In this document: positions 5,881 through 63,289 of the stretch, piece after piece
How the letters are laid out: each line of letters starts with the position of its first letter
How positions within the stretch are numbered: position 1 is the stretch's first letter
Notes under the pieces: generated by a model
The model's database searches: none
The model's input: the letters and a program-made list of their open reading frames with translations, nothing else
What the model was told of the DNA's origin: nothing
DNA from: Squalus acanthias
Taxonomy: Eukaryota
DNA: 64,000 nt
Assembly (NCBI GenBank): GCA_030390025.1
Contig: CM059427.1
Span: 188,108,001-188,172,000, forward strand
Reading direction: 5' to 3'
Made by a program: the position numbers and the translations under genes

Positions 5881-6399
5881 TAATAGTTTCAACAAAATAG
5901 CACTTTGTCAAAATAGGTGTTTTTTAAGTGAATGCCAGTTACAGATCTGTGGCTGTCTCACACCTTGATGGTTAATGTCTCCCCAGACAGCACAGCCGAG
6001 ATTGGGAACTCGCCACCTGGGGAATCTCAGGTGTGAATCTGTATTCTGCCACTCTGGTCAGGACAACACTTTCACATCCAGTTTGACAGTTTAGATAATG
6101 AATGACCCAATTTTGAGTTTATTCACTCCCTTTTCATTCACTCAGAGCTGCTCACTTTAATTCTAAACCATTGCACCCACAAGAATCTGTTGAAAATAGT
6201 CAAATCCAAACACATAAAATGTGACAAAAAGAACACAACGTGGACTTGGTCTTGATGGAAATATTTGGTTCTCTGGCTCCCAGTGTTTAAAGCAAAAATG
6301 TTTTCACTTTCCACATCTTTTATAGAATGACTGGCAGGAGTATTTAAATATTAAACGAGATGGAGAGTGAAACTAAAATATCAACTTTGTCCTTCACAG

Positions 6400-6503
6400 T
6401 GAGACCACTTCCGGAGATTTGGATCATCACAGTTTCGGGCTACTTGTTGGTTATTCTGGGCGTTGCTGTTGGACTAATTTGCTGCTTGAAGAGGATGACC
6501 AGA
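6400..6503 (+). CDS. Transmembrane exon of IgSF receptor copy A
   Basis: Acceptor ttgtccttcacAG, phase 1; encodes RPLPEIWIITVSGYLLVILGVAVGLICCLKRMTR; donor GTAAGA at 6504, phase 0. Confidence 0.85.
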
Positions 6504-7516
6504 GTAAGAATTTCTTTATCTTTCCAGTAAATCAGGAATTAGTGCCGAGCTGTCACTTGACACTGAGAAAACTGATGTTCGTTGAACAGATATTATGTGG
6601 TCACAAACTGTATTTTAAAATTTCATTTAAATATTGTACATTGTATTGAATTTAAAGGAATCATCAGTTAAAGGAAGCAATTGTTCCAAATTGTGTGAAT
6701 TCTTATAGCTTTGAATATTTTTCCTGATTCAAACGGCAATAACTTCCCTGCTCCCACTTTCCATCAGGCTCTGAGGAAGGAATCAGGGAGATCTCGGAGG
6801 GCCATACCTGATTATTAATGAATGGACAATGCTCAAACTAGGAGCCCAAACTTTTAATATGTTTCACTGATTATCACAAATATTCCTCTTGGAAATTAAG
6901 AACTTGATTGTCATCAGAAACCAATAATATGTGAACAGATGTTTGAAAATGAACAACCAGTAAAAATTGCAATAAACTGAACAGTAAGACTGTATTTAGT
7001 GAAAATTAATGATTATGAGAAACTTTACATCAGATCACAGCTCTGGGAGGTAACAAAAGAGACAGAATCAGTAGCTTTAGTAGGAGAGCATTGTTCTGTC
7101 AGAAGCAGAGTTGTAAGTTCAAGGAGGTAACTTTACTGGTGAGGTCAGTCAACCACAGGGAGAACCTCTCAGAAATGTGGTCACACTATGGCCATGAACT
7201 TTGACCTCAATGGTGTGACCTTATTTTACATTCATACATTCATAGTAGGAAAAATCTTCCACAATATCTGCTATCAGTAACTGGAGTTAGTTTATCATTT
7301 TAATCAGGTCTGTTCCTTCCAAATACTGAAGTTTATAATTGTTGAAATTATCTCATTAACACTGAGCCAGTGATGTGTGGGTCATGGTCTGTTCTGTTGC
7401 CCATTCTGTAAAATTACTCCTCTATTCGACTTCCTCTTTATCCATCACTTCCAGTCCAGTGTTTATTATTGAAGGATAAGCTCTTTATTTAAAGCACATT
7501 TCTTGCCTCTTGTCAG

Positions 7517-7624
7517 ATATCGAACAGCGGGAATCCACCCGAGCCGACAGAAAATAAAACGGATGATTCAGAAGAAGCCGTCGCATTACAGACCCTGAAC
7601 TCTGATACTGATCTGAGATCATAG
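7517..7624 (+). CDS. Cytoplasmic (last coding) exon of IgSF receptor copy A
   Basis: Acceptor tcttgcctcttgtcAG; phase 0 matches the TM exon; ISNSGNPPEPTENKTDDSEEAVALQTLNSDTDLRS*. Candidate poly(A) signal AATAAA at 8296. Confidence 0.65.
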   Translation: MSNSGNPPEPTENKTDDSEEAVALQTLNSDTDLRS

Positions 7625-9955: not shown

Positions 9956-10552
9956 TGTACCTGATAAACCCCTTCGAATCCAGCACAGCTCCAGTTCTGG
10001 ACATGATAAACCCCTTCGAATCCAGCACAGCTGCAGTTCTGGACAGGATAAACCCCTTCGAATCCAGCACAGCTCCAGTTCTGGACATGATAAACCTCTT
10101 CGAATCCAGCACAGCTCCAGTCCTGTACATGATAAACCCCTTCGAATCCAGCACAGCTCCAGTTCTGGACATGATAAACCCCTTCGAATCCAGCACAGCT
10201 GCAGTTCTGGACAGGATAAACCCCTTCGAATCCAGCACAGCTCCAGTTCTGGACATGATAAACCTCTTCGAATCCAGCACAGCTCCAGTCCTGTACATGA
10301 TAAACCCCTTCGAATCCAGCACAGCTCCAGTTCTGGACATGATAAACCCCTTCGAATCCAGCACAGCTCCAGTTCTGGACATGATAAACCCCTTCGAATC
10401 CAGCACAGCTCCAGTTCTGTACATGATAAACCCCTTCGAATCCAGCACAGCTCCAGTCCTGGACATGATAAACCCCTTCGAATCCAGCACAGCTCCAGTT
10501 CTGGACATGATAAACCCCTTCGAATCCAGCACAGCTCCAGTTCTGGACATGA
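9956..10552. repeat. 42-bp tandem repeat, ~14 copies
   Basis: Unit atgataaaccccttcgaatccagcacagctccagttctggac, contiguous with no spacers. Confidence 0.97.
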
Positions 10553-12622: not shown

Positions 12623-15600
12623 GGGCTCAATTTTAATGGGGAAGGAGGGCTGGGTGCGGGAGGGCTCCGAGGTGGTCAGGAAACTCAGGAGAACATTTTC
12701 CCACAGGCCCTGCCAACTTTAGCAGCAGGGCCTGATTAGCATGGGAAGCCTCTGTTTCCCACTCTCAGACAGCCAGATGGAGAGCTTGGCTGGCTGCGGG
12801 CGGGTAGGCCTGCAGCACTAGGCCGCAGAGAGGAGGGAGGGAGGGATCAGGTGGGAGCCGGGGTCAGCCGGAGGAGGATCGGAGATGGGGGTGAGAGAGA
12901 ATCGGGGCCGGAGCATCGGGGGCGGGAGGAAAGGGAAGAATGGATCGGGGCCGGTCTCCTGAGATTGGGGATTCGGGAGGCGGGGGCGGTGGGGGAATGG
13001 ATGAATGAGTCAGGTCCGAACTACTGAGCATCGAGTAGTAGGGAGGGAAGACTGGATCAGGGCTGGAGCTTCGCGGGGGTGGGAGAGTAGATCAGGGCCG
13101 GAGGATCGGGGGATGGGACAGTATATTGAGGCCGGAGGATCGGGGGGGGGGGGGGCGGTGGGACAGTATATTGGGGCCAGTGGATCGGGGGTGGGACAGT
13201 ATATTGGGGTCGGAGGATCGGGGGATGGGACAGTATATTGGGGTCGGAGGATCGGGAGGTGGGACAGTATATTGAGGCCGGAGGATCGGGGGGTGGGACA
13301 GTATATTGGGTCGGAGGATCGGGGGATGGGACAGTATATTGGGGCCGGAGGATCGGGGGATGGGACAGTATATTGGGGCCAGAGGATCGGGGGATGGGAC
13401 AGTATATTGAGGCCGGAGGATCGGGGGATGGGACAGTATATTGAGGTCGGAGGATCGGGGGATGGGACAGTATATTGAGGCCGGAGGATCGGGGGTGGGA
13501 CAGTATATTGGGGTCGGGGGATCGGGGGATGGGACAGTATATTGGGGTCGGAGGATCGGGGGGTGGGACAGTATATTGGGGCCGGAGGATCGGGGGATGG
13601 GACAGTATATTGGGGTCGGAGGATCGGGGGGTGGGACAGTATATTGGGGCCGGAGGATTGGGGGATGGGACAGTATTTTGGGGTCGAGGATCGGGGGATG
13701 GGACAGTATATTGGGGCCGGAGGATCGGGGGATGGGACAGTATTTTGGGGTCGGAGGATCGGGGGATGGGACAGTATATTGGGGCCGGAGGATCGGGGGA
13801 TGGGACAGTATATTGGGGTCGGAGGATCGGGGGATGGGACAGTATTTTGGGGCCAGAGGATCGGGGGATGGGACAGTATATTGGGGCCAGACGATCGGGG
13901 GATGGGACAGTATATTGGGGTCGGAGGATCGGGGGATGGGACAGTATATTGGGGCCAGAGGATCGGGGGATGGGACAGTATATTGGGGTTGGAGGATCGG
14001 GGGATGGGACAGTATATTGGGGTCGGAGGATCGGGGGATGGGAGAGTATATTGGGGTCGGAGGATCGGGGGATGGGACAGTATATTGGGGTCGGAGGATC
14101 GGGGGATGGGACAGTATATTGGGGTTGGAGGATCGGGGGATGGGACAGTATATTCGGGTCGGAGGATCAGGGGATGGGACAGTATATTGGAGCCAGAGGA
14201 TCGGGGGATGGGACAGTATATTGGAGCCAGAGGATCGGGGGATGGGACAGCATATTGGGGTCGGAGGATCGGGGGATGGGACAGTATATTGGGGCCGGAG
14301 TATCGGGGGATGGGACAGTATATTGGGGTCGGAGGCTCGGGGGATGGGACAGTATATTGGAGCCAGAGGATCGGGGGATGGGACAGTATATTGGGGCCAG
14401 AGGATCGGGGGTTGGGACAGTATATTGGGGTCGGAGGATCGGGGGATGGGACAGTATATTGGAGCCAGAGGATCGGGGGATGGGACAGCATATTAGGGTC
14501 GGAGGATCGAGGAAGGGACAGTATATTGGAGCCAGAGGATCGGGGGATGGGACAGCATATTGGGGTCGGAGGATCGGGGGATGGGACAGTATATTGGAGC
14601 CAGAGGATCGGGGGATGGGACAGCATATTAGGGTCGGAGGATCGAGGAAGGGACAGTATATTGGAGCCAGAGGATCGGGGGATGGGACAGCATATTGGGG
14701 TCGGAGGATCGGGGGATGGGACAGTATATTGGGGCCGGAGGATCGGGGGATGGGACAGTATATTGGGGTCGGAGGCTCGGGGGATGGGACAGTATATTGG
14801 AGCCAGAGGATCGGGGGATGGGACAGTATATTGGGGCCAGAGGATCGGGGGTTGGGACAGTATATTGGGGTCGGAGGATCGGGGGATGGGACAGTATATT
14901 GGGGTCGGAGGATCGGGGGATGGGACAGTATATTGGGGTCGGAGGATCGGGGGATGGGACAGTATATTGGGGTCGGAGGATCGGGGGATGGGACAGTATA
15001 TTGGGGCCGGAGGATCGGGGGATGGGACAGTATATTGGGGCCGGAGGATCGGTGGGGTGGGACAGTATATTGGGGCCGGAGGATCGGGGGATGGGACAGT
15101 ATATTGGGATCGGAGGATCGGGGGATGGGACAGTATATTGGGGCCGGAGGATCGGGGGGTGGGACAGTATATTGGGGCCAGAGGATCGGGGGGTGGGACA
15201 GTATTTTGGGGTCGGAGGATCGGGGGATGGGACAGTATATTGGGGCCGGAGGATCGGAGGATGGGACAGTATATTGGGGTCGGAGGATCGGGGGATGGGA
15301 CAGTATATTGGGGTCGGAGGATCGGGGGATGGGACAGTATATTGGGGTCGGAGGATCGGGGGATGGGACAGTATATTGGGGTCGGAGGATCAGGGGATGG
15401 GACAGAATATTGGGGCCAGAGGATCGGGGGATGGGACAGTATATTGAGGCCAGAGGATCGGGGGATGGGACAGTATATTGGGGTCGGCGGATCGGGGGAT
15501 GGGACAGTATATTGGGGTCGGAGGATCGGGGGATGGGACAGTATATTGGGGCCGGAGGATCGGGGGATGGGACAGTATATTGGGGTCGGAGGATCGGGGG

Positions 15601-18347
15601 ATGGGACAGTATATTGGGCCCGGAGGATCGGGGGATGGGACAGTATATTGGGGCCAGACGATCGGGGGATGGGACAGTATATTGGGGTCGGAGGATCGGG
15701 GGATGGGACAGTATATTGGGGCCAGAGGATCGGGGGATGGGACAGTATATTGGGGTTGGAGGATCGGGGGATGGGAGAGTATATTGGGGTCGGAGGATCG
15801 GGGGATGGGACAGTATATTGGGGTCGGAGGATCGGGGGATGGGACAGTATATTGGGGCCGGAGGATCGGGGGATGGGACAGTATATTCGGGTCGGAGGAT
15901 CAGGGGATGGGACAGTATATTGGAGCCAGAGGATCGGGGGATGGGACAGTATATTGGAGCCAGAGGATCGGGGGATGGGACAGCATATTGGGGTCGGAGG
16001 ATCGGGGGATGGGACAGTATATTGGGGCCGGAGTATCGGGGGATGGGACAGTATATTGGGGTCGGAGGCTCGGGGGATGGGACAGTATATTGGAGCCAGA
16101 GGATCGGGGGATGGGACAGTATATTGGGGCCAGAGGATCGGGGGTTGGGACAGTATATTGGGGTCGGAGGATCGGGGGATGGGACAGTATATTGGAGCCA
16201 GAGGATCGGGGGATGGGACAGCATATTGGGGTCGGAGGATCGAGGAAGGGACAGTATATTGGAGCCAGAGGATCGGGGGATGGGACAGCATATTGGGGTC
16301 GGAGGATCGGGGGATGGGACAGTATATTGGGGCCGGAGTATCGGGGGATGGGACAGTATATTGGGGTCGGAGGCTCGGGGGATGGGACAGTATATTGGAG
16401 CCAGAGGATCGGGGGATGGGACAGTATATTGGGGCCAGAGGATCGGGGGTTGGGACAGTATATTGGGGTCGGAGGATCGGGGGATGGGACAGTATATTGG
16501 GGTCGGAGGATCGGGGGAATGGGACAGTATATTGGGGTCGGAGGATCGGGGGATGGGACAGTATATTGGGGTCGGAGGATCGGGGGGTGGGACAGTATAT
16601 TGGGGCCGGAGGATCGGGGGGTGGGACAGTATATTGGGGCCGGATGATCGGTTGGGGGGTGGGACAGTATATTGGGGCCGGAGGATTGGGGGATGGGACA
16701 GTATATTGGGGTCGGAGGATCGGGGGATGGGACAGTATATTGGGGCCGGAGGATCGGGGGGTGGGACAGTATATTGGGGCCAGAGGATCGGGGGGTGGGA
16801 CAGTATTTTGGGGTCGGAGGATCGGGGGATGGGACAGTATATTGGGGCCGGAGGATCGGAGGATGGGACAGTATATTGGGGTCGGAGGATCGGGGGATGG
16901 GACAGTATATTGGGGCCGGAGGATCGGGGGATGGGACAGTATATTGGAGTCGGAGGATCGGGGGATGGGACAGTATATTGGGGTCGGAGGATCGGGGGAT
17001 GGGACAGTATATTGGGGTCGGAGGATCGGGGGATGGGACAGTATATTGGGGCCGGAGGATCGGGGGATGGGACAGTATATTGGGGCCAGAGGATCGGGGG
17101 ATGGGACAGTATATTGGGGTCGGAGGATCAGGGGATGGGACAGTATATTGGGGTCGGAGGATCAGGGGATGGGACAGTATATTGGGGTTGGAGGATCGGG
17201 GGATGGTACAGTATATTGGGGTTGGAGGATCGGGGGATGGGACAGTATATTGGGGCCGGAGGATCGGAGGATGGGACAGTATATTGGGGTCGGAGGATCG
17301 GGGGATGGGACAGTATATTGGGGCCGGAGGATCGGGGGATGGGACAGTATATTGGAGTCGGAGGATCGGGGGATGGGACAGTATATTGGGGTCGGAGGAT
17401 CGGGGGATGGGACAGTATATTGGGGTCGGAGGATCGGGGGATGGGACAGTATATTGGGGTCGGAGGATCGGGGGATGGGACAGTATATTGGGGCCAGAGG
17501 ATCGGGGGATGGGACAGTATATTGGGGTCGGAGGATCAGGGGATGGGACAGTATATTGGGGTCGGAGGATCAGGGGATGGGACAGTATATTGGGGTTGGA
17601 GGATCGGGGGATGGTACAGTATATTGGGGTTGGAGGATCGGGGGATGGGACAGTATATTGGGGCCAGAGGATCGGGGGATGGGACAGTTTATTGGGGCCG
17701 GAGGATTGGGGGATGGGACAGTATATTGGGGCCGGAGGATCGGGGGATGGGACAGTATATTGGGGCCGGAGGATTGGGGGATGGGACAGTATATCGGGAC
17801 CGTATCATCGGAGAGGTGAGGGACGGAACCATCGGAGCCGGAGGATAGGGGCGGTGGGGGGCGAGGGGGTGAAGCATCGGGGTGGGTGGGGTGGGGGTGA
17901 GGGCAGGACTTCATCAGGGTCAGCCTGAGGATCATGATTGGGGTGGGTCGCAGTCTGGAAAGGCGATCGGAGGGCTTGTGAGGGGGGGTCTCTGATCACA
18001 GGGGGTGTGTTAGGCAGGGTCTCTGCATCCAGGAGTTTAGTGTAAAGACAATCCTTGCCTTGCTTTAGCTGCCGAGTTTTATGAAGTGTGCAAAACCCGA
18101 CCAGCTGCAGTAAAACACAAAATGGAGGTTAAAGAAGAGGCTTCCAGCCTCATTATAATATTTAAATAGACAGTCCGCCTTCTGGCAGTGGGTTGGCTGC
18201 CTGCCCCTGTCCCACCTGCTGCCCCACCTCCGTTAAAACCAGAAGTTGGATGGTTGGAGGCGGATTCATGCTGGGATTCCGATTTTTAACAATTTAAATA
18301 CCCCCGCGCCCCCCAACTCACCTGTTTGTATAGGTTAAAATTCCCCC
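12623..18347. mobile_element. MITE (family 3) hosting the 34-bp satellite
   Basis: Termini gggctcaattttaa / ttaaaattccccc. The right end matches, in reverse, the left end of 60485-61346 (gcctccaacc..cttctggttttaacggaggtggg). Confidence 0.7.
13095..17795. repeat. G-rich 34-bp minisatellite, ~138 copies
   Basis: Unit ggatcgggggatgggacagtatattggggtcgga; the 34-aa period in the ORFs equals three units. Confidence 0.98.
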
Positions 18348-30313: not shown

Positions 30314-30423
30314 GCAAAGAGATGGAATCTGTGAAATGAGGCTATGATTTTGCTGCAGCAAAATGCCAGCTGGTTTGATGTTCAGTTTCTTTGTGTTTCT
30401 ACTTCCGTCTGTTTTCACACAAA
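30314..30423 (+). CDS. Signal-peptide exon, copy B (ATG at 30363); no Ig exons found downstream in its own copy
   Basis: ttcttacAG acceptor; MPAGLMFSFFVFLLPSVFTQ plus 1 nt; donor GTACGT. Confidence 0.75.
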
Positions 30424-30555
30424 GTACGTGCCTTTTTTCCACCAATCACAATCATATTTTTTTACTTCATCTTAGTGTTTAACGAATTCACACACCTAGT
30501 ATTCAACAAGTAAGTAAGGTCTTTATTTTCCTGTCCCTGCTCCTTTAAACAGGGT

Positions 30556-37300: not shown

Positions 37301-37695
37301 CTCCATTCATATATTTGACAGGTCTTCCTGTCAAATGTATGAAGGGAGATTCCCTTCTCTTATTGGCTCCCCATGGCCCACGTGATCCCAGGGACGCTGC
37401 GAACTACCTGCGCCTCTGGGATATGTGGGCCCTGCACACCGGCAGTTTGGAGAGGCCCAGCATCGGAATTGTGCGCCTCCTGGGAGCCCTCAGGTAAGGG
37501 CACAGATTTTTCCTGATTGCAGTCCACCGCCCACGGGAGGCCTACGATCGGAAAATACGGGCCACCCTGTTTAAAGGAGCAGGGACATGAAAATAAAGAC
37601 CTTACTTACTTGTTGAATACTCGGTGTGTGAATTTGTTAAACACTAAGATGAAGTAAAAAAATATGATTGTGATTGGTGGAAAAAAGGCACTTAC

Positions 37696-37805
37696 TTTGT
37701 GTGAAAACAGACGGAAGTAGAAACACAAAGAAACTGAACATCAAACCAGCTGGCATTTTGCTGCAGAAAAATCATAGCCTCATTTCACAGATTCCGTCTC
37801 TCTGC
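37696..37805 (-). CDS. Inverted copy of the signal-peptide exon (ATG at 37756)
   Basis: Identical 61-nt coding part, intact AG acceptor and GTAAGT donor on the minus strand. Confidence 0.7.
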
Positions 37806-53182: not shown

Positions 53183-53291
53183 GCAAAGAGACGGAATCTG
53201 TGAAATGAGGCTATGATTTTCTGCAACAAAATGCCAGCTGGTTTGATGTTCAGTTTCTTTGTGTTTCTACTTCCGTCTGTTTTCACACAAA
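53183..53291 (+). CDS. Signal-peptide exon of IgSF receptor copy C (ATG at 53231)
   Basis: AG acceptor; MPAGLMFSFFVFLLPSVFTQ; phase-1 donor A/GTAAGT splices in frame to 59623. Confidence 0.85.
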
Positions 53292-53894
53292 GTAAGTGCC
53301 TTACTTCCACCAATCACATTCATATTGTTTTACTTTATCAGAGTGTTGACTGAATTCACACACCTCAGCAAGCAAGGAAGGTCTTTATTTTCCTGTCCCT
53401 GCTCTTTTAACAGGGGTAGAGGTTCTGCTTTGGGCACAATCGGCGATTCCGGCGCAAATTTTTTCTCTAGTTTCCGTTCAAACTCATTTGCATATCGGCG
53501 AAAGCAAAATCTGCCCTGAAGCAGCGCAATTGGCCAACGTTTTAAAACGTCATTTTTTTTTAAGTTGCTTTAAAAAGTATTCCTTGATATATTTAAGAGT
53601 GGTAACTTGGTGCAGTTTGCTTAATACAGCTGGAAATGGGTTTAACAAAAAATAAGCATTTTAAATCAGTGTCAATCCACCACCTGTGAGTAATCCAATC
53701 AGGGAAATTGTGCCGAGAAAACCAGCGTGATTGAGCGGAAACGCCAGGCCGCTGTGTAAGTTCACTTTTCAGAGTCCAACAGTGGAACAACTTAATAAAA
53801 TGAAAAATATTAGCAGATTTCTCATTGCTCTTCAATTCCTTTTCCCGATCTATCTATTAATCTCTCTATCTGTCGATACATCTACTCTTGCATG

Positions 53895-56800
53895 TTTTTT
53901 TGTACTTGTCTTTTATGGGAAGTGGGCATTGCTGGCAAGGCTAGCATATACTGCCCATCACTAATTGCCCTTGAGAAGGTTGCAGTGAGCTTCCTTCTTG
54001 AACTGCTGCAGTCCGTGTGGTGAAGGTACTCCCACAGTGCTGTTAGGTAGGGAGTTCCAGGATTTTGACCCAGTGACGATGAAGGATCGGCGATATACTA
54101 CTAAGTCAGGATGGTGTGTGACTTGGAGGGGAACTTGGAGGTGGTGGTGTTCCCATGCATCTGCTGCCCTTGTCCTTCTAGGTGGAAGAGGTCGTGGGTT
54201 TGGGAGGTGCTGCCGAAGAAGCCTTGGCGAGTTGCTGCAGTGCATCATGTAGATGGTACACACTGCAGCTACAGTATGCTGGTGGTGGAGGGAGTGAATG
54301 TTTAATGTGGTAGATGGGATGCCAATCAAGCGGGCTGCTTTGTCCTGGATGGTGTCGAGCTTCTTGAGTGCTGTTGGAGCTGCACTCATCCAGGCAAGTG
54401 GAGACTATTCCATCACACTCCTTACTTGTGCCTTGTAGATGGTAGAAAGGCTTTGGGGAGAGAGGAGGTGAGACACTTGCCACAGAATACCTAGCCTCTG
54501 ACCTGCTCTTGTTGCCACAATATTTATGTGGCTGGTCCAGTTAAGCTTCTGGTCAATGGTGACCCCTAGGATGTTGATGGTGGGGCATTCGGCAATGGTA
54601 ATGCCATTGAATGTCGAGGGGCGGTGGTTAGACTCTCGCTTGTTGGAGATAGTCATTGCCTGGCACTTGTGTGGCGTGAATGTTATCTGCCACTTATCAG
54701 CCCAAGCCTGAACGTTGTCCAGGTCTTGTTGCATGCGGGCATGGACTGCTTCATTAACTGAGGAGTTGTGAATGGCACTGAACACTGTGCAGTCATCAGC
54801 GAACATCCCCATTTCTGACCTTATGTTGGAGGGAAGGTCATTGATGAAGCAGCTGAAGATGGTTGGGCCTAGGACACTGCACTGAGGAACTCCTGCAGTG
54901 ATGTCCTGGGGCTGTGATGATTAACCTTCAATCACCACAACCATCTTCCTTTGTGCTAGGTATGACTCCAGCCAGTGGAGAGTTTTCCCCCCGATTCCCA
55001 TTGACTTCAGTTTTACTAGGGCTCCTTGATGCCACACTCGGTCAAATGCTGCCTTGATGTCAAGGGCAGTCACTCTCTCTTCTCCTCTGGAATTCAGCTC
55101 CTTTGTCCATGTTTGGACCAAGGCTGTAATGAGGTCCGGAGCCGAGTGGTCTTGGTGGAACCCAAACTGATCATCGGTGTACAGGTTATTGATGAGTAAG
55201 TGCCGCTTGATAACACATTCGATGACACCTTCCATCACTTTGCTGATGATTGAGAGTAGACTGATGGGGCGGTAATTGGCCGGATTGGATTTGTCCTGCT
55301 TTTTGTGGACAGGACATACCTGGGCAGTTTTCCACATTGTCGGATAGATGCCAGTGTTGTAGCTGTACTGGAACAGCTTGGCTAGAGGTGGGGCTAGTTC
55401 TGGAGCACAAGTCTTCAGCACGATAGCCGATTTGTCGTCAGGGCCCATTGCCGCTATTGTATCCAGTGCGCTCGGCCGTTTCTTGATATCACGTGGAGTG
55501 AATCGAATTGGCTGAAGACTGGTTTCTGTGATGGTGGGGACCTCAGGAGGAGGCCAATATGGATCATCCACTCGGCACTTCTGGCTGAAGATGGTTGCAA
55601 CACTTCAGCCTTGTCTTTTGCACTCACATGCTGGGCTCCGCCATCATTGAGGATGGGGATATTCATGGAGCCTCCACCTCCCATTAGTTGTTTAATGGCC
55701 CACCACCATTCACGACTGGATGTGGCAGGACTGCACATCCTGACCTAGTCATACTCATAGAATCATACTTTCAGCCAATGTCCCAAACTACACCATCATC
55801 ATCCCTGGGTATTTCCTGTCCCACCGGAAGGACAGACCCACCAGGGGTGGCGGCACAGTGGTATACAGTCGGGAAGGAGTGGCCCTGGATGTCCTCAACA
55901 TTGAATCCGGACCCCATGAAGTCTCATGGCTTCAGGTCAAGCATGGGTAAGGAAACCTCCTGCTGAATACCACCTACCGCCCTCCCTCAGCTGATGACTC
56001 AGTACTCCGCCATGTGATCCGTTGATTGTGGGATTGCTTAGCTCTGTCTATAGAATGCTGCTTCTGCTTTTTAGCATGCATGTAGTCCTGTGTTGCAGCT
56101 TCCCCAGGTTGGCACCTCATTTTTAGGTACGACTGGTGCTGCTCCTGGCAAGCTTTTCTACACTCCTTATTATTCCCCTGGCTTGATGGTAATGGTAGAG
56201 TGAGGGATATGCAAGGCCATGAGGTTACAGATTGTGGTGGAATACAATCCAATTCTGCTGCTGCTGATGGCTCACAGCGCCTCATCGATGCCCAGTTTTG
56301 ATCTCCTAGATCTGTTCTGAATCTTTTCCATTTAGCATGGTGCTCATGCCACACAACACGATGGAGGGTGTCCTCAGTGTGAAGACGGGACTTTGTCTCC
56401 CCAATGACTGTGCGATGGTTACTGTTACCAATACTGTCATGGACAGATGCATCTGTGACAGGTAGTTTGGTGAGGAAGAGCTCAAGTAGGTTTTTCCCTC
56501 GTGTTGGTTCTCTCACCACCTGTCACTCTTGGTGATGGACATTGAAGTCCCCCACCCAGAGTACATTCTGTGCCCTTGCTACTCTCAGTGTTTCTTCCAA
56601 GTGGTGTTCAACATGGCGGAGTACTGATTCATCAGCTGAGGGAGGGCGGTAGTTGGTATTCAGCAGGAGGTTTCCTTACCCATGCTTGACCTGAATCCAT
56701 GAGACTTCATGGGGTCCGGATTCAATGTGGAGGACTCCCAGGGCCACTCCTTCCCGACTGTATACCACTGTGCCACCACCTCTGGTGGGTCTGTCCTACC

Positions 56801-57050
56801 CGTGGGACAGGACATACCCAGGGGTGGTGATGGTGTAGTTTGGGACATTGGCTGAAAGTATGATTCTGTGAGTATGACTATGTCAGGCTGTTGCTTGACT
56901 AGTCTGTGGGACAGCTCTCCCAATTTTGGCACAAGTCCCCAGATGTTGGTGAGGAGGACTTTGCAGAGTTGAGTGGGCTGGGTGTGCCATTGCTGTGTCC
57001 ATTGCCGGTGCTGAGGTCAATGCCGGGTGGTCCGTCCAGTTTCATTTTTA
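53895..57050 (-). mobile_element. L2/CR1-group LINE ORF2 remnant (endonuclease plus RT) with an internal inverted segment
   Basis: QQPDIVILTES; NPANYRPISLLSIISKVME..QFGF..LDIKAAFDRVWH; MFADDC; LDTIQDKAARLIG. Confidence 0.92.
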
Positions 57051-57064
57051 TTATTTTGTTTCGG

Positions 57065-57388
57065 AGCGGTTTGTTACAACTGAGTGGTTTGCTAGTCCAT
57101 TTCAGAGAGAAATTAAGAGTCAACCACTTTACTGTGGGTCTGGAGTCACATATAGGCCAGACCAGGTAAGGACGGCAGATTTTCTTCCCTAAAGGACATT
57201 AGTGAACCAGAAGACTTTTTACGACAATCCGGTAGTTTCATGGTCACCATTACTGATACTAGCTTTTTATTCCAGATTTATTTAATGAACTGAAATTAAA
57301 TTCCCCAGCTGCTGTCGTGGAATTTGAACTCACGTCTACTTGGATCATTAGTCCAGGCCGACTGGATTACCACTATGCTACCGTTCCC
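57065..57388 (-). mobile_element. tRNA-derived SINE
   Basis: Minus strand ggtagcatagtggtaa (A box) ... gagttcaaattcc (B box), followed by a SINE body. Confidence 0.65.
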
Positions 57389-59622
57389 TACAATAGCAAA
57401 CTTACATCAGAGCATTTTCTCTATTCTATGTTGTGTTATATTTGATCAATCAACAGTTTAACAGATTGCATGTGGTATAGAATGGGTCAAAAGTAATAAC
57501 AATATTGAAATGTTAATAAATGTTAAAATTCAGAATTATTGAGAATAATTTTTTGTGTTCGAGGCTGTGCGACATATAAAAGTTACAGTTGGGTAAAACA
57601 TCATTTGAAAAGGTTTGAAGGTTTGTCGCTGATCCTCACTTCGGGTCACATCTTGGTTTAGTGTCCAAAGGTGTTTAAACATCACTGTGAATACAGTGTG
57701 CACAGAGCCATTGTTTTTTTGGTAATTGTGATGTGAGCTGGTATTTAATCAAGACTTACAGACACATGGGATTTACTGCTTTAGATCACTTCCCTTGTGA
57801 AAATGTAAATAAAATAATAGTTACAAATAAGGATTAGTTTACTGTTACTCTTGAAATGAAGGAAGATAATGATTCAAAGGTGGAAATGTAGTCTAGGGAA
57901 ATATAGCGATGAACTATTGACTGAATGATGTGACCACTGTCACCAGAGGTCACCTGGAAGTATTCAAATGCATTAACGTTAAATGTCACCGTCACAGCCA
58001 CAGTTGTCACCTTTCACAGATAAGGCAAAGCACCTGGTGGAAAGAGACTGCAAGTCAGGTTCCAAGAGCTGGTTTATCTCTGTCACGGTGTCTAATCAGA
58101 CAAGGCGAGAGGATGCAGGAACTGGCTGATCGCTGCCCACCTCAGGAAACCCCATCACAGGACAAACGGGATGGAGACCCGACGTAACCGTATCCTGCAC
58201 CAATTTCACTCCCCGAGCTCCACCTTGATAATTCTCCCTGCAGACCAGGAGTCGGGAGGAGATTTCCTTTATTTTCAGTAACAAGAAATGTAGCCATGAC
58301 CTCTCTTTTTATTTTGATTACTTTTTGTAATAATAATGTATGTTACATAGAATTACAAAGTATTTTACAGCACAGAAACATCTCTCTCATGTACCTATCT
58401 ATGTTCAGAAAGCTCTGGTAATAGATACACAGAATATCTACTGGAAGTGTTCTGTTTTTCCCTGTAACAGTGCCTGCAGTGAAGGTGACATGATACAGCG
58501 CTTTCTCCTCATGTATTAGTGCTTCATTGTAACCATCTCTGGACTGAACTCCTCAATGAAGGAGCTTTGCCATCTTCTTGGGATTGTAATGGGAGAGGAT
58601 TTCACTCTCCCTTCTTGCCCAATTTTGGATAGATTGTTGTCGGCAGGGGCAGAAAGTGGGGATGGGGATCCGGCGGGCTGCTCCCTGCAGATTGTCGTCA
58701 CTTTACTGAATATATGGACCCAAATATGGAGAGATTTATTCAAATTGCGTGGAGAGGCCAAGTGTTATCAGATGTTACATTCACCGTCATTACTGCCATA
58801 ACAATGCTGGAACACAAGGGACAGCAGCATGTTCCCGGCATCTAGCGTTGCGTTGGCTTGCGGGAGGGGATTTCAATTTCAAACATCTATCTGAAGCAAA
58901 GCAATTGATCATGATCAAAGCAATTTGATCCCTCCCTCTCCCAGGTGGGTCCCTCGGATCAAAGCACGAGTCCTACTGGGAGCCCACAATAATTATCAAA
59001 ATTATGCTGATCTCAGGAAATTCCCCAGGGATCAGCGTTTGGGAAGACAGGCGGGCCTACGGGCAGATTATGGCCAAGTGGAAAATCCTGCCTCCCTTTG
59101 TTGTTGGTGCTCCTGTGGGTAGCCTGGTCACTAGTGGTCCAGGAGAACCAACAACGTACTGGGCATTGCACAAGAGGAGGGGAGATCACTTGTAGAGATC
59201 ACTGACCTGATTTATGAGCCTGAAGTGATATGACTGCACCAGTACTGTATTCAGTTTTAGGAGAATACTGATTATTGTGACGGTATTTCAGATTTCTTAA
59301 CAATATGGGAGTAACGATTCCCCTTCCACACTCCCAGTAAATGCTGGAAATACGGATTGTGAAATTGGACACTGCAGGCCCACGAGGTCAGAGTGCAGTG
59401 GCAGAAATTCACCCTCTAATGTCCTAAAGTATCACTGGATTAGGCCAGATTATTCCAGACAGTCAGCTCTTCACCGGGGTGTGTATGTGTCATTGCTGAA
59501 TCCATTGTATATAAAAAATATGACTGTAAATAAATGAAGTCCAATATTAATCATTACAAACATGGGATTAAGTAGTTGTGATTTAAATATTTAAATATTT
59601 ACATTGTTCCTCTTTCTAACAG

Positions 59623-59964
59623 GAAAACCAAATCATATTTATTTTTTGGATAAGCGAGATGACTTTCAATTAAACGGACCGGACAATCCTGGGAATGGCC
59701 CTGTTGTCTGGGAATGGAAACCACACTCAGGGCAAGAAATCCAGCGGCTGGTTACTTTTCCCAAAGGGAGTTCGAGCTGGTGGGACGCACAATGGAACTA
59801 TCACTTTAGAAATGACGACTTGTACCAGATGATAGAACAGGATCCTGGTACCATTAACCTGAGAATTAGAAAACCCACATTTAATTTTGCGGGATCGTTC
59901 ATCTTGACTCAAACACAGCCGAGTAATAAAATCCTGAAACAGTATGAAATATTTGGGATCAAAG
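59623..59964 (+). CDS. First Ig (V-like, cysteine-less) domain exon of IgSF receptor copy C
   Basis: tctttctaacAG ... AAAG/GTGAGT, phase 1-1, 342 bp open. KPNHIYF..FQLNGP..VVWEWKP..LVTF..INLRIRKPTFNFAGSFILT..YEIFGIK. Confidence 0.88.
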
Positions 59965-63019: not shown

Positions 63020-63289
63020 TTGAGTCGAGTCCACAGAGTGCTGTGGTGGGCAGTGACGTTACACTCAGCTGTACCATCTCCAAACTCTCAGATACAGTCA
63101 GTCTTCAATGGAAACAGAGAGACTCATCTCAGCAGAACAGGAGCAACACTGATCAGATCCGACTAAATAACACAGTCTATCTGATCGTCAAACATGTTGC
63201 AGTAGAGGATAAGAAGTTGTACGCGTGTGAAGTGCAGGAAAATGGATCCATTATTCTCACAGGAAAAGCAGATTTTTCTGTGGCCCAGG
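63020..63289 (+). CDS. Second Ig (C2-type) domain exon of IgSF receptor copy C
   Basis: ttttcacAG ... CAGG/GTAAGT, phase 1-1. VESSPQSAVVGSDVTLSCTIS..LQWKQ..YLIVKHVAVEDKKLYACEV. Confidence 0.93.

Follow-up and report, generated by a model that had tools for sequence, protein, structure and literature searches.

The exon at positions 59623-59964 of the window (the whole stretch of 64,000 nucleotides of Squalus acanthias DNA analysed here) encodes an immunoglobulin (Ig)-type domain without a single cysteine. It raises the question of which protein it belongs to, and whether its tryptophan-rich middle segment is a diversified binding surface. As a whole, the analysis indicates that the exon probably encodes the first domain, free of cysteine, of a receptor with eight Ig domains and an intact frame, likely an activating one, which belongs to a paired family with a predicted CD4/LAG-3-like scaffold.

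Domain 1 and its missing disulfide

59623-59964 (+): domain 1 exon, a disulfide-free V-type Ig domain (translation, AlphaFold2 model, fold searches, profile alignment)
59676-59678 (+): G18, B-strand cysteine position, invariant in 48 alignment rows (profile alignment)
59904-59906 (+): L94, F-strand cysteine position, at which divergent paralogues keep a cysteine (profile alignment)

Preceded by ...ctaacag and followed by gtgagt, the exon runs from phase 1 to phase 1. Read from 59625, it gives 113 residues with no cysteine and five tryptophans (W29, W31, W52, W53 and W57). Domain 1 was modelled by AlphaFold2, from a 48-row alignment, as a beta-sandwich with a mean pLDDT of 88.6; the predicted model shows the V-set frame, with strands A', B, C, C', D, E, F and G and the C-strand Trp. 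The leading Foldseek matches are V-type Ig domains (2B4, MPZL1 and P0), while VIA gave Z scores of 14.0 for the NITR11 V domain (rmsd 2.3, 104 aligned), 13.4 for NTB-A and 13.0 for Nav beta4. Identities to the best structural matches are 5-15% and the V-type scores are closely tied. As for the ESM Atlas, V-set clusters were retrieved at 0.91-0.92, with a CD200R1-like protein as the top name, which is a lead only. The earlier note on this DNA, made from the letters alone, had described a V-set frame, the lack of cysteine with LNGP and FIL at the B- and F-strand cysteine positions, and five tryptophans. All the motifs that it quoted are present, and the AlphaFold and Foldseek check that it proposed returned an Ig sandwich with V-type domains as best matches.

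In a profile alignment with CD4/LAG-3, the two cysteines fall on G18 (of LNGP) in the B strand and on L94 (of FIL) in the F strand. This register is confirmed by divergent paralogues of the same genome, which retain a lone F-strand cysteine at the L94 position. None of the 25 distinct domain-1 copies has a cysteine at either position. In a shark-to-teleost alignment of 46 rows (two further rows lack this part), a cysteine is found at the B position in none and at the F position in six, including the chimaera protein. The B-F disulfide of the Ig V-set is absent from domain 1 and its loss is family-wide; from these counts, we infer that it may have been lost stepwise, the B-strand cysteine first. 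Pfam recognised no family in domain 1 at E ≤ 1. The disulfide-free domain is a signature of the family, so Pfam misses it and the proteins are annotated as uncharacterized or obscurin-like.

Concerning the tryptophans, five represent a mild excess (Poisson p 0.017, with an assumed background of 1.3%). Across the family, domain 1 holds four to seven, and all 16 domain-5 copies hold six. In the 48-row alignment, every row has W29 and W31, at least 90% of the rows have W53 and W57, and W52, also a selected site, is the sole variable one. Since four of the five are conserved, the tryptophans of domain 1 are likely mostly scaffold, W52 excepted, with diversity around them. Together with F-strand Phe/Leu, the conserved ones would putatively fill the core in place of the disulfide. 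The proposal that tryptophan richness marks diversification was ruled out, domain 5 being richer in Trp yet conserved.

The receptor gene and splicing in its family

53213-53291 (+): coding part of the leader (signal peptide) (tblastn with named homologues, gene model, spliced joint 53291-59623)
63020-63289 (+): domain 2 exon, coding for a C2-type Ig domain that has two Cys and YxC in place of WxC (sequence, gene model)
C3:188174168-188196317 (+), 2-24 kb past the window end on the same contig: domains 3-8, lysine membrane exon and tail exon (gene model)

The gene model comprises 11 exons, all with GT/AG ends, and an open frame of 907 residues, laid out as a leader, domains 1-8, a membrane exon and a tail exon. 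The leader has in-frame ATGs at 53213 and 53231 and a donor GT after 53291. The Ig domains follow a repeat unit, present twice, which consists of a Cys-free V domain, a C2 domain with YxC, a V domain with two Cys and a C2 domain with WxC. Domains 2, 3 and 4 have two Cys each, and the F-strand motifs read WxC in domains 4 and 8, YAC in domain 2 and YTW in domain 6. Domain 2 is nearly invariant across paralogues. The membrane segment, GYLLVKLG, has a central lysine and the 36-codon tail exon has no tyrosine, which makes the protein a likely activating member. A twin of the gene matches it at 99% identity along 10.5 kb, and such copies may be haplotypes or assembly duplicates.

Two further observations were made on the gene. 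In domain 6 (locus L012:593-865), a Trp replaces the F-strand Cys, which amounts to a second disulfide loss in the same protein. At 53205-53216, the upstream ATG of the homologues opens a frame of three codons in the window, and the related contigs have one additional base at 53216.

The joint from 53291 to 59623 (GT..AG) was found in contigs of all four runs, from two studies, at 88% likeness. The lysine membrane exon was joined to the tail exon in the four runs as well, with zero mismatches in two of them. No run listed is on record as RNA; these four are guessed to be, and contain at most 0.48 of the words of the domain-1 exon. They show that the family, lysine form included, is spliced. 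At 88% likeness and with this fraction of words, the window copy is not singled out, so that transcription, on which the earlier reading depended, is supported for family members.

Genomic cluster and tail types

A search of the 3.7-Gb genome with domain 1 gave 66 matches (75 candidates scored), nearly all on C3, the window's contig, between 186.4 and 189.5 Mb. They include 31 full-length first domains (30 on C3 and one on C26) and 17 close domain-5 copies, the rest being divergent or broken. The cluster holds about 33 genes in 3.1 Mb. Frameshifts or stops were found at at least eight domain-1-type and domain-5-type places. An ARAP3-like gene (E 3.7e-27) lies on the right flank, and no marker gene was recognised in 100 kb of the left flank.

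The membrane exon of the window gene's type has 24 matches, of which 23 were translated: 14 carry Lys, six Gln and three Ile/Leu. The downstream neighbour gene has a neutral membrane segment and the ITIM-type motifs EYATV, IHYGSI and VIYAQI; the exon with IHYGSI has 20 matches in the genome, counted at the DNA level. Tail types were assigned by position rather than from full gene models, each of 33 domain-1 exons being paired with the closest tail exon on its strand, up to 60 kb away. By this rule, the next tail exon was Lys-type for 12, ITIM-type for 11, Gln for three, without Lys for three, and none for four. The genes are clustered, their ectodomains are similar, and some have ITIM tails where others combine a short tail with a charged residue in the membrane segment, which are the features of paired receptors. 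On a tree of the first domains of eight Lys-type and nine ITIM-type genes, the two types are intermixed and a single clade is rejected (p-AU 3.7e-6). Domain-1 identity is 83-84% within as between tail types. The membrane exons L114-L119 form a class of their own, with Gln replacing Lys.

Selection and recombination

Out of 30 domain-1 exons, three frameshifted ones were dropped and two identical pairs merged, which left 25. Seventeen domain-5 exons gave 16 after removal of one with a stop, and for domain 3 all 25 loci of domain-3 type, among 30 found by search, were used. The pairwise dN/dS is 1.07 for domain 1 vs. 0.23 for domain 5, its internal copy, on which selection is purifying. With codon models, the likelihood ratio tests (LRT) for domain 1 reached 77.7 (M2a vs. 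M1a) and 77.6 (M8 vs. M8a), with about 25% of the sites at an omega of 4.2; the corresponding values for domain 5 are 0.9 and 1.4. Domain 3, which recombines, gave an LRT of 72.1 (M2a vs. M1a) on a single tree. The parts under selection there are the FG loop and a BC loop that is rich in tyrosine and varies in length.

A PHI-type test detected recombination in domains 1 and 3 (p 0.001), not in domain 5 (p 0.38). Since recombination inflates the single-tree test, nominal p-values are far too small and the posteriors overstate the certainty of individual sites. The single-tree test was therefore dropped as sole evidence after simulations of recombining null data, which gave a mean LRT of 26.6 and a maximum of 60.2 (21 simulations) vs. 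the 77.7 observed in domain 1. With separate trees for four segments of domain 1, the LRT is 35.3. The tree-free pairwise ratio of 1.07 was reached in 0/300 simulations under each of two recombining nearly-neutral models. Under an all-neutral model it was reached in 12/300, never jointly with the 47 invariant columns (out of 113) of domain 1. Domain 1 is under positive selection, which survives the recombination controls.

These results also bear on the alternative of a decaying tandem array, where relaxed constraint and gene conversion would account for the variation and the window copy would have no specific role. We regard it as very improbable. Several copies are indeed broken, recombination inflates the selection test, and dS is also higher in residues 45-79 (0.17 vs. 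0.05-0.07). However, the frame is intact, 47 of 113 columns are invariant, domain 5 of the same genes has a low dN/dS, and spliced contigs come from two studies. The joint pattern occurred in 0/300 simulations under each of the three non-selective models, by which decay is largely refuted.

The site-wise dN/dS across paralogues that had been proposed as a check identified fifteen sites at a posterior above 0.95 (residues 11, 15, 48, 51, 52, 54, 59, 61, 68, 69, 72, 74, 76, 83 and 106). Eleven of them lie in residues 45-78 (Fisher p 0.0003).

59766-59852 (+): hypervariable segment, residues 48-76, with 11 of the 15 selected sites; W52 variable, W53 and W57 conserved

In the predicted secondary structure, this segment takes in the C'C'' loop, a pair of short helices that precede D, strand D itself and the DE loop. 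By the same mapping, strands C, C' and F are free of selected sites, and G holds one of the 15. The aromatic patch had been put forward by the earlier note as a site of diversification among paralogues. The middle segment does diversify, but its tryptophans, W52 apart, mostly do not.

An N-glycosylation sequon has been gained at residues 83-85 (59871-59879) in five of the 25 copies, the window copy not being one of them. This dimorphism includes the selected position 83.

Comparison with CD4 and LAG-3

The four-domain homologue P0028 was modelled with a pLDDT of 83.3 and a pTM of 0.75. LAG-3 and CD4 occupy ranks 1-7 of its Foldseek search, and VIA placed CD4 first (Z 17.9). One half of P0028 superposes on rat CD4 D3D4 (Z 16.4, rmsd 2.4, 171 aligned) and its domains 1-2 on CD4 D1D2 (Z 12.7, rmsd 3.6, 170 aligned). 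The fit of the whole ectodomain on CD4/LAG-3 is loose (rmsd 12-22 A), and only two-domain halves superpose well. At the profile level, the family and CD4/LAG-3 are colinear over 401 columns (probability 99.9, E 1.3e-36). Against the family profile, ten single CD4/LAG-3-type sequences score 85-147. This range overlaps with the 61-103 of other multi-Ig proteins, and two tandem V-C2(WxC) proteins reach 142-158. With per-domain profiles, domains 3-4 match the CD4 V-C2 module, and no sequence match was obtained between domain 1 and CD4 D1. Taken together, LAG-3 and CD4 are the best matches of the four-domain unit, rather than SLAM or, as far as the listed rows of the fold searches go, CEACAM, and a CD4/LAG-3-like build is predicted.

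The family shares with CD4/LAG-3 the V-C2-V-C2 ectodomain, the F-strand WxC of domain 4, the top structural matches and a continuous V-to-C2 strand, predicted in P0028 at E123-138 and E328-344. Tails carry Cx(C/H) in CD4 and (F/Y)xxL(D/E) in LAG-3, and in sharks each of the two is described as a single gene. Another defining feature is a WxC on the F strand of D2 as well as of D4 (available part of PMC10768021). In contrast, domain 2 of the family has YxC instead of WxC, domain 1 lacks both Cys, the tail of the window gene has neither Cx(C/H) nor (F/Y)xxL(D/E), and there are about 30 genes, with the unit repeated one to four times. The family thus falls outside CD4/LAG-3 on the domain-2 WxC and on the tail motifs. 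The ARAP3-like gene at the flank of the cluster is a possible further difference. TPI1, a marker of the CD4 region, is on the small contig C2106 and the family cluster on C3.

Comparison with other receptor families

In CD2/SLAM, the N-terminal V domain is disulfide-free, as it is in the family. Their C2 domain has two disulfides and their tails carry ITSM motifs (TxYxxV/I), whereas domains 2 and 4 of the family have two Cys each and its tail motifs lack Thr at -2. The CEACAM N domain is also without a disulfide and is followed by C2 domains, unlike the alternating V-C2-V-C2 layout of the family with its second selected V domain (domain 3). CEACAM was not among the listed rows of the fold searches, and such lists cannot exclude a family. 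The parallel with CD2/SLAM and CEACAM that had been drawn at first is kept as an analogy for the missing disulfide; for the whole ectodomain, LAG-3 and CD4 are the best matches.

Another candidate, G6f-like, was reportedly related to CD4/LAG-3 by Ohashi and colleagues in 2010. Teleost G6f-like is a fish membrane receptor with four extracellular Ig domains, but it signals through an ITAM and a YxN of its own (available part of PMC3528668) and the tail of the window gene has no Tyr; the two are set apart by description. As for the CEACAM pairs of Xenopus and human, the available part of PMC5112662 reports an N-terminal V domain that is positively selected and that gene conversion swaps among inhibitory and activating genes, much as in the family. 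The same part gives activating CEACAMs an ITAM-like tail and places selection on the CC'C''FG face. The family has a membrane lysine, with no ITAM among the matches listed, and selection mostly in the C'C''-D-DE region.

DICPs of ray-finned fish are, in the available part of bioRxiv 2021.06.11.448072, clustered paired receptors with ITIM and charged-membrane forms and with two- or four-domain V-C2 layouts, all of which resembles the family. C23 and C104 are retained in DICP domains, those of four-domain forms included, and most have extra, DICP-specific Cys; by comparison with this published description, domain 1 is without C23 and C104. The same text gives DICPs as MHC-linked. In the dogfish genome, an MHC II beta family search gave no match, its control being equally silent, and the homologue identifiers are absent from one supplement file of the MHC paper PMC10751288, a search without positive control. 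DICP, SLAM, CEACAM and G6f-like each differ from the family in defining features.

An adhesion molecule or co-receptor of SLAM/CEACAM type, homophilic or heterophilic, would bind a sibling or a fixed self ligand through strands C, C' and F, with the variation elsewhere reflecting microbial escape. The resemblance of domain 1 alone to 2B4, NTB-A, CD48 and CD84, among tied V domains, and the conservation of the face formed by the strands almost free of selected sites would suit such a role. Set against the match of the whole unit to CD4/LAG-3, ITIM tails without the Thr of an ITSM and the membrane lysine of the activating members, this role appears quite unlikely.

Relatives in other vertebrates

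The closest proteins to domain 1 are all from elasmobranchs (44 of 65 candidates), with identities of 49-77%. They belong to the same family under automatic or misleading names, namely RefSeq 'uncharacterized' proteins and the nurse shark 'obscurin-like protein' AGQ17915.1. A profile search against 1.84 billion representatives gave 468 matches, of which 150 were listed, 20 of them named. Among the matches listed, four-domain relatives with a Cys-free first domain occur in chimaera, sturgeons, bowfin, eel, tarpon, sucker and pike. They are called uncharacterized, hypothetical or Ig-like, with one CEACAM5-like isoform, and bear no family name. Also among the matches listed, three-domain forms without domain 1 were found in characiforms, carps and, more weakly, a frog. 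P0164, P0185 and P0206 are such C2-V-C2 relatives with ITIM tails, and P0164, which is from the frog, suggests that the family may have survived in amphibians without domain 1.

The GYLxVK membrane motif is found again in the bowfin and sturgeon relatives, and ITIM tails in the teleost ones; the tails of the matches listed showed no ITAM. The next profile matches include coelacanth CD4 and caecilian LAG-3, via domains 3-4. Six homologue identifiers had no mention in the open papers searched. The family was not found described in the open PMC or bioRxiv literature, and subscription papers may describe it.

Putative signalling and ligands

In KIR2DS, TREM and CD300, a central membrane lysine with a short tail couples to DAP12-type adaptors, and ITIMs are inhibitory. 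NITR and DICP have the same lysine/adaptor and ITIM pattern (available part of bioRxiv 2021.06.11.448072). By analogy with these five, the lysine of the window receptor would couple to a DAP12-type adaptor, and its ITIM siblings would recruit SHP-1/2 as known paired receptors do. A DAP10 family search (best E 0.75) is uninformative about adaptors. The recognition surface would be formed by domain 1 (C'C'' loop, helical insert and DE loop) and by the tyrosine-rich BC loop of domain 3. The ligand may be a fast-changing one, most likely a microbial protein exploiting the inhibitory siblings, to which the activating copies would stay matched through gene conversion. In the Xenopus CEACAM pairs, first-domain exchange between activating and inhibitory genes is linked to pathogen decoys (available part of PMC5112662).

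The main rival ligand is MHC, because the variable edge of domain 1 corresponds to the MHC II contact region of CD4. The same type of receptor would then recognise polymorphic self MHC in a KIR/Ly49-like role, its diversity following MHC alleles and not microbes. The nearest solved relatives of the scaffold bind MHC II, and paired tails with copy expansion are known from KIR, in which first-domain exchange also occurs. More precisely, the variable segment covers the C'C''-D edge, where CD4 makes its MHC II contacts F43, K46 and R59 (available part of PMC10768021). Yet CD4 D1 is not matched in sequence by domain 1, the match to the CD4 V-C2 module being through domains 3-4, and first-domain exchange is the pattern of pathogen decoys in the available part of PMC5112662, the KIR case notwithstanding. 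An MHC ligand is thus considered unlikely.

Paired receptors as a kind are already known, and V domains without a disulfide are not rare. What was unexpected is a large, positively selected paired cluster on a predicted CD4/LAG-3-like scaffold, with relatives from chimaera to teleosts. Its members are candidates for recognition receptors of shark innate cells, and the family offers a new outgroup for tracing how CD4 and LAG-3 arose. A wider reading, which we hold as doubtful, is that the CD4/LAG-3 superfamily has a third, so far unrecognised branch, which would be of the same age as the jawed vertebrates and would have been lost, or have shrunk, in tetrapods. Sharks would have expanded it into a polymorphic, KIR/Ly49-like set of activating and inhibitory receptors whose two diversified V domains read MHC or its microbial mimics. 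If this were true, CD4 and LAG-3 would be what is left, now fixed, of an innate receptor family that was formerly variable.

Other family copies and features of the locus

1268-1462, 6390-6506 and 7514-7621 (+): 3' end of an upstream family gene, with a domain-4-type exon containing a stop, an Ile-for-Lys membrane exon and a short tail exon, respectively
30336-30470 (+) and 37649-37783 (-): orphan leader-exon copies, no domain 1 being found adjacent

Outside the cluster, a lone divergent family gene, similar to a Heptranchias protein, is located 13 Mb away (C3:173779657-173813271); its domain 1 has YxC in the F strand and its tail an ITIM-type motif. Other outside copies (C26:26259599-26275594, C1512 and C9:7336213) mostly have stops or are truncated. 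On the left flank of the cluster, interrupted retrovirus-like protease and reverse transcriptase frames are found at L157:4971-7236 (-). Finally, the window contains two minisatellites, at 13074-17798 (34 bp, about 139 copies) and 9962-10552 (42 bp, 14 copies), which give rise to long spurious open frames.
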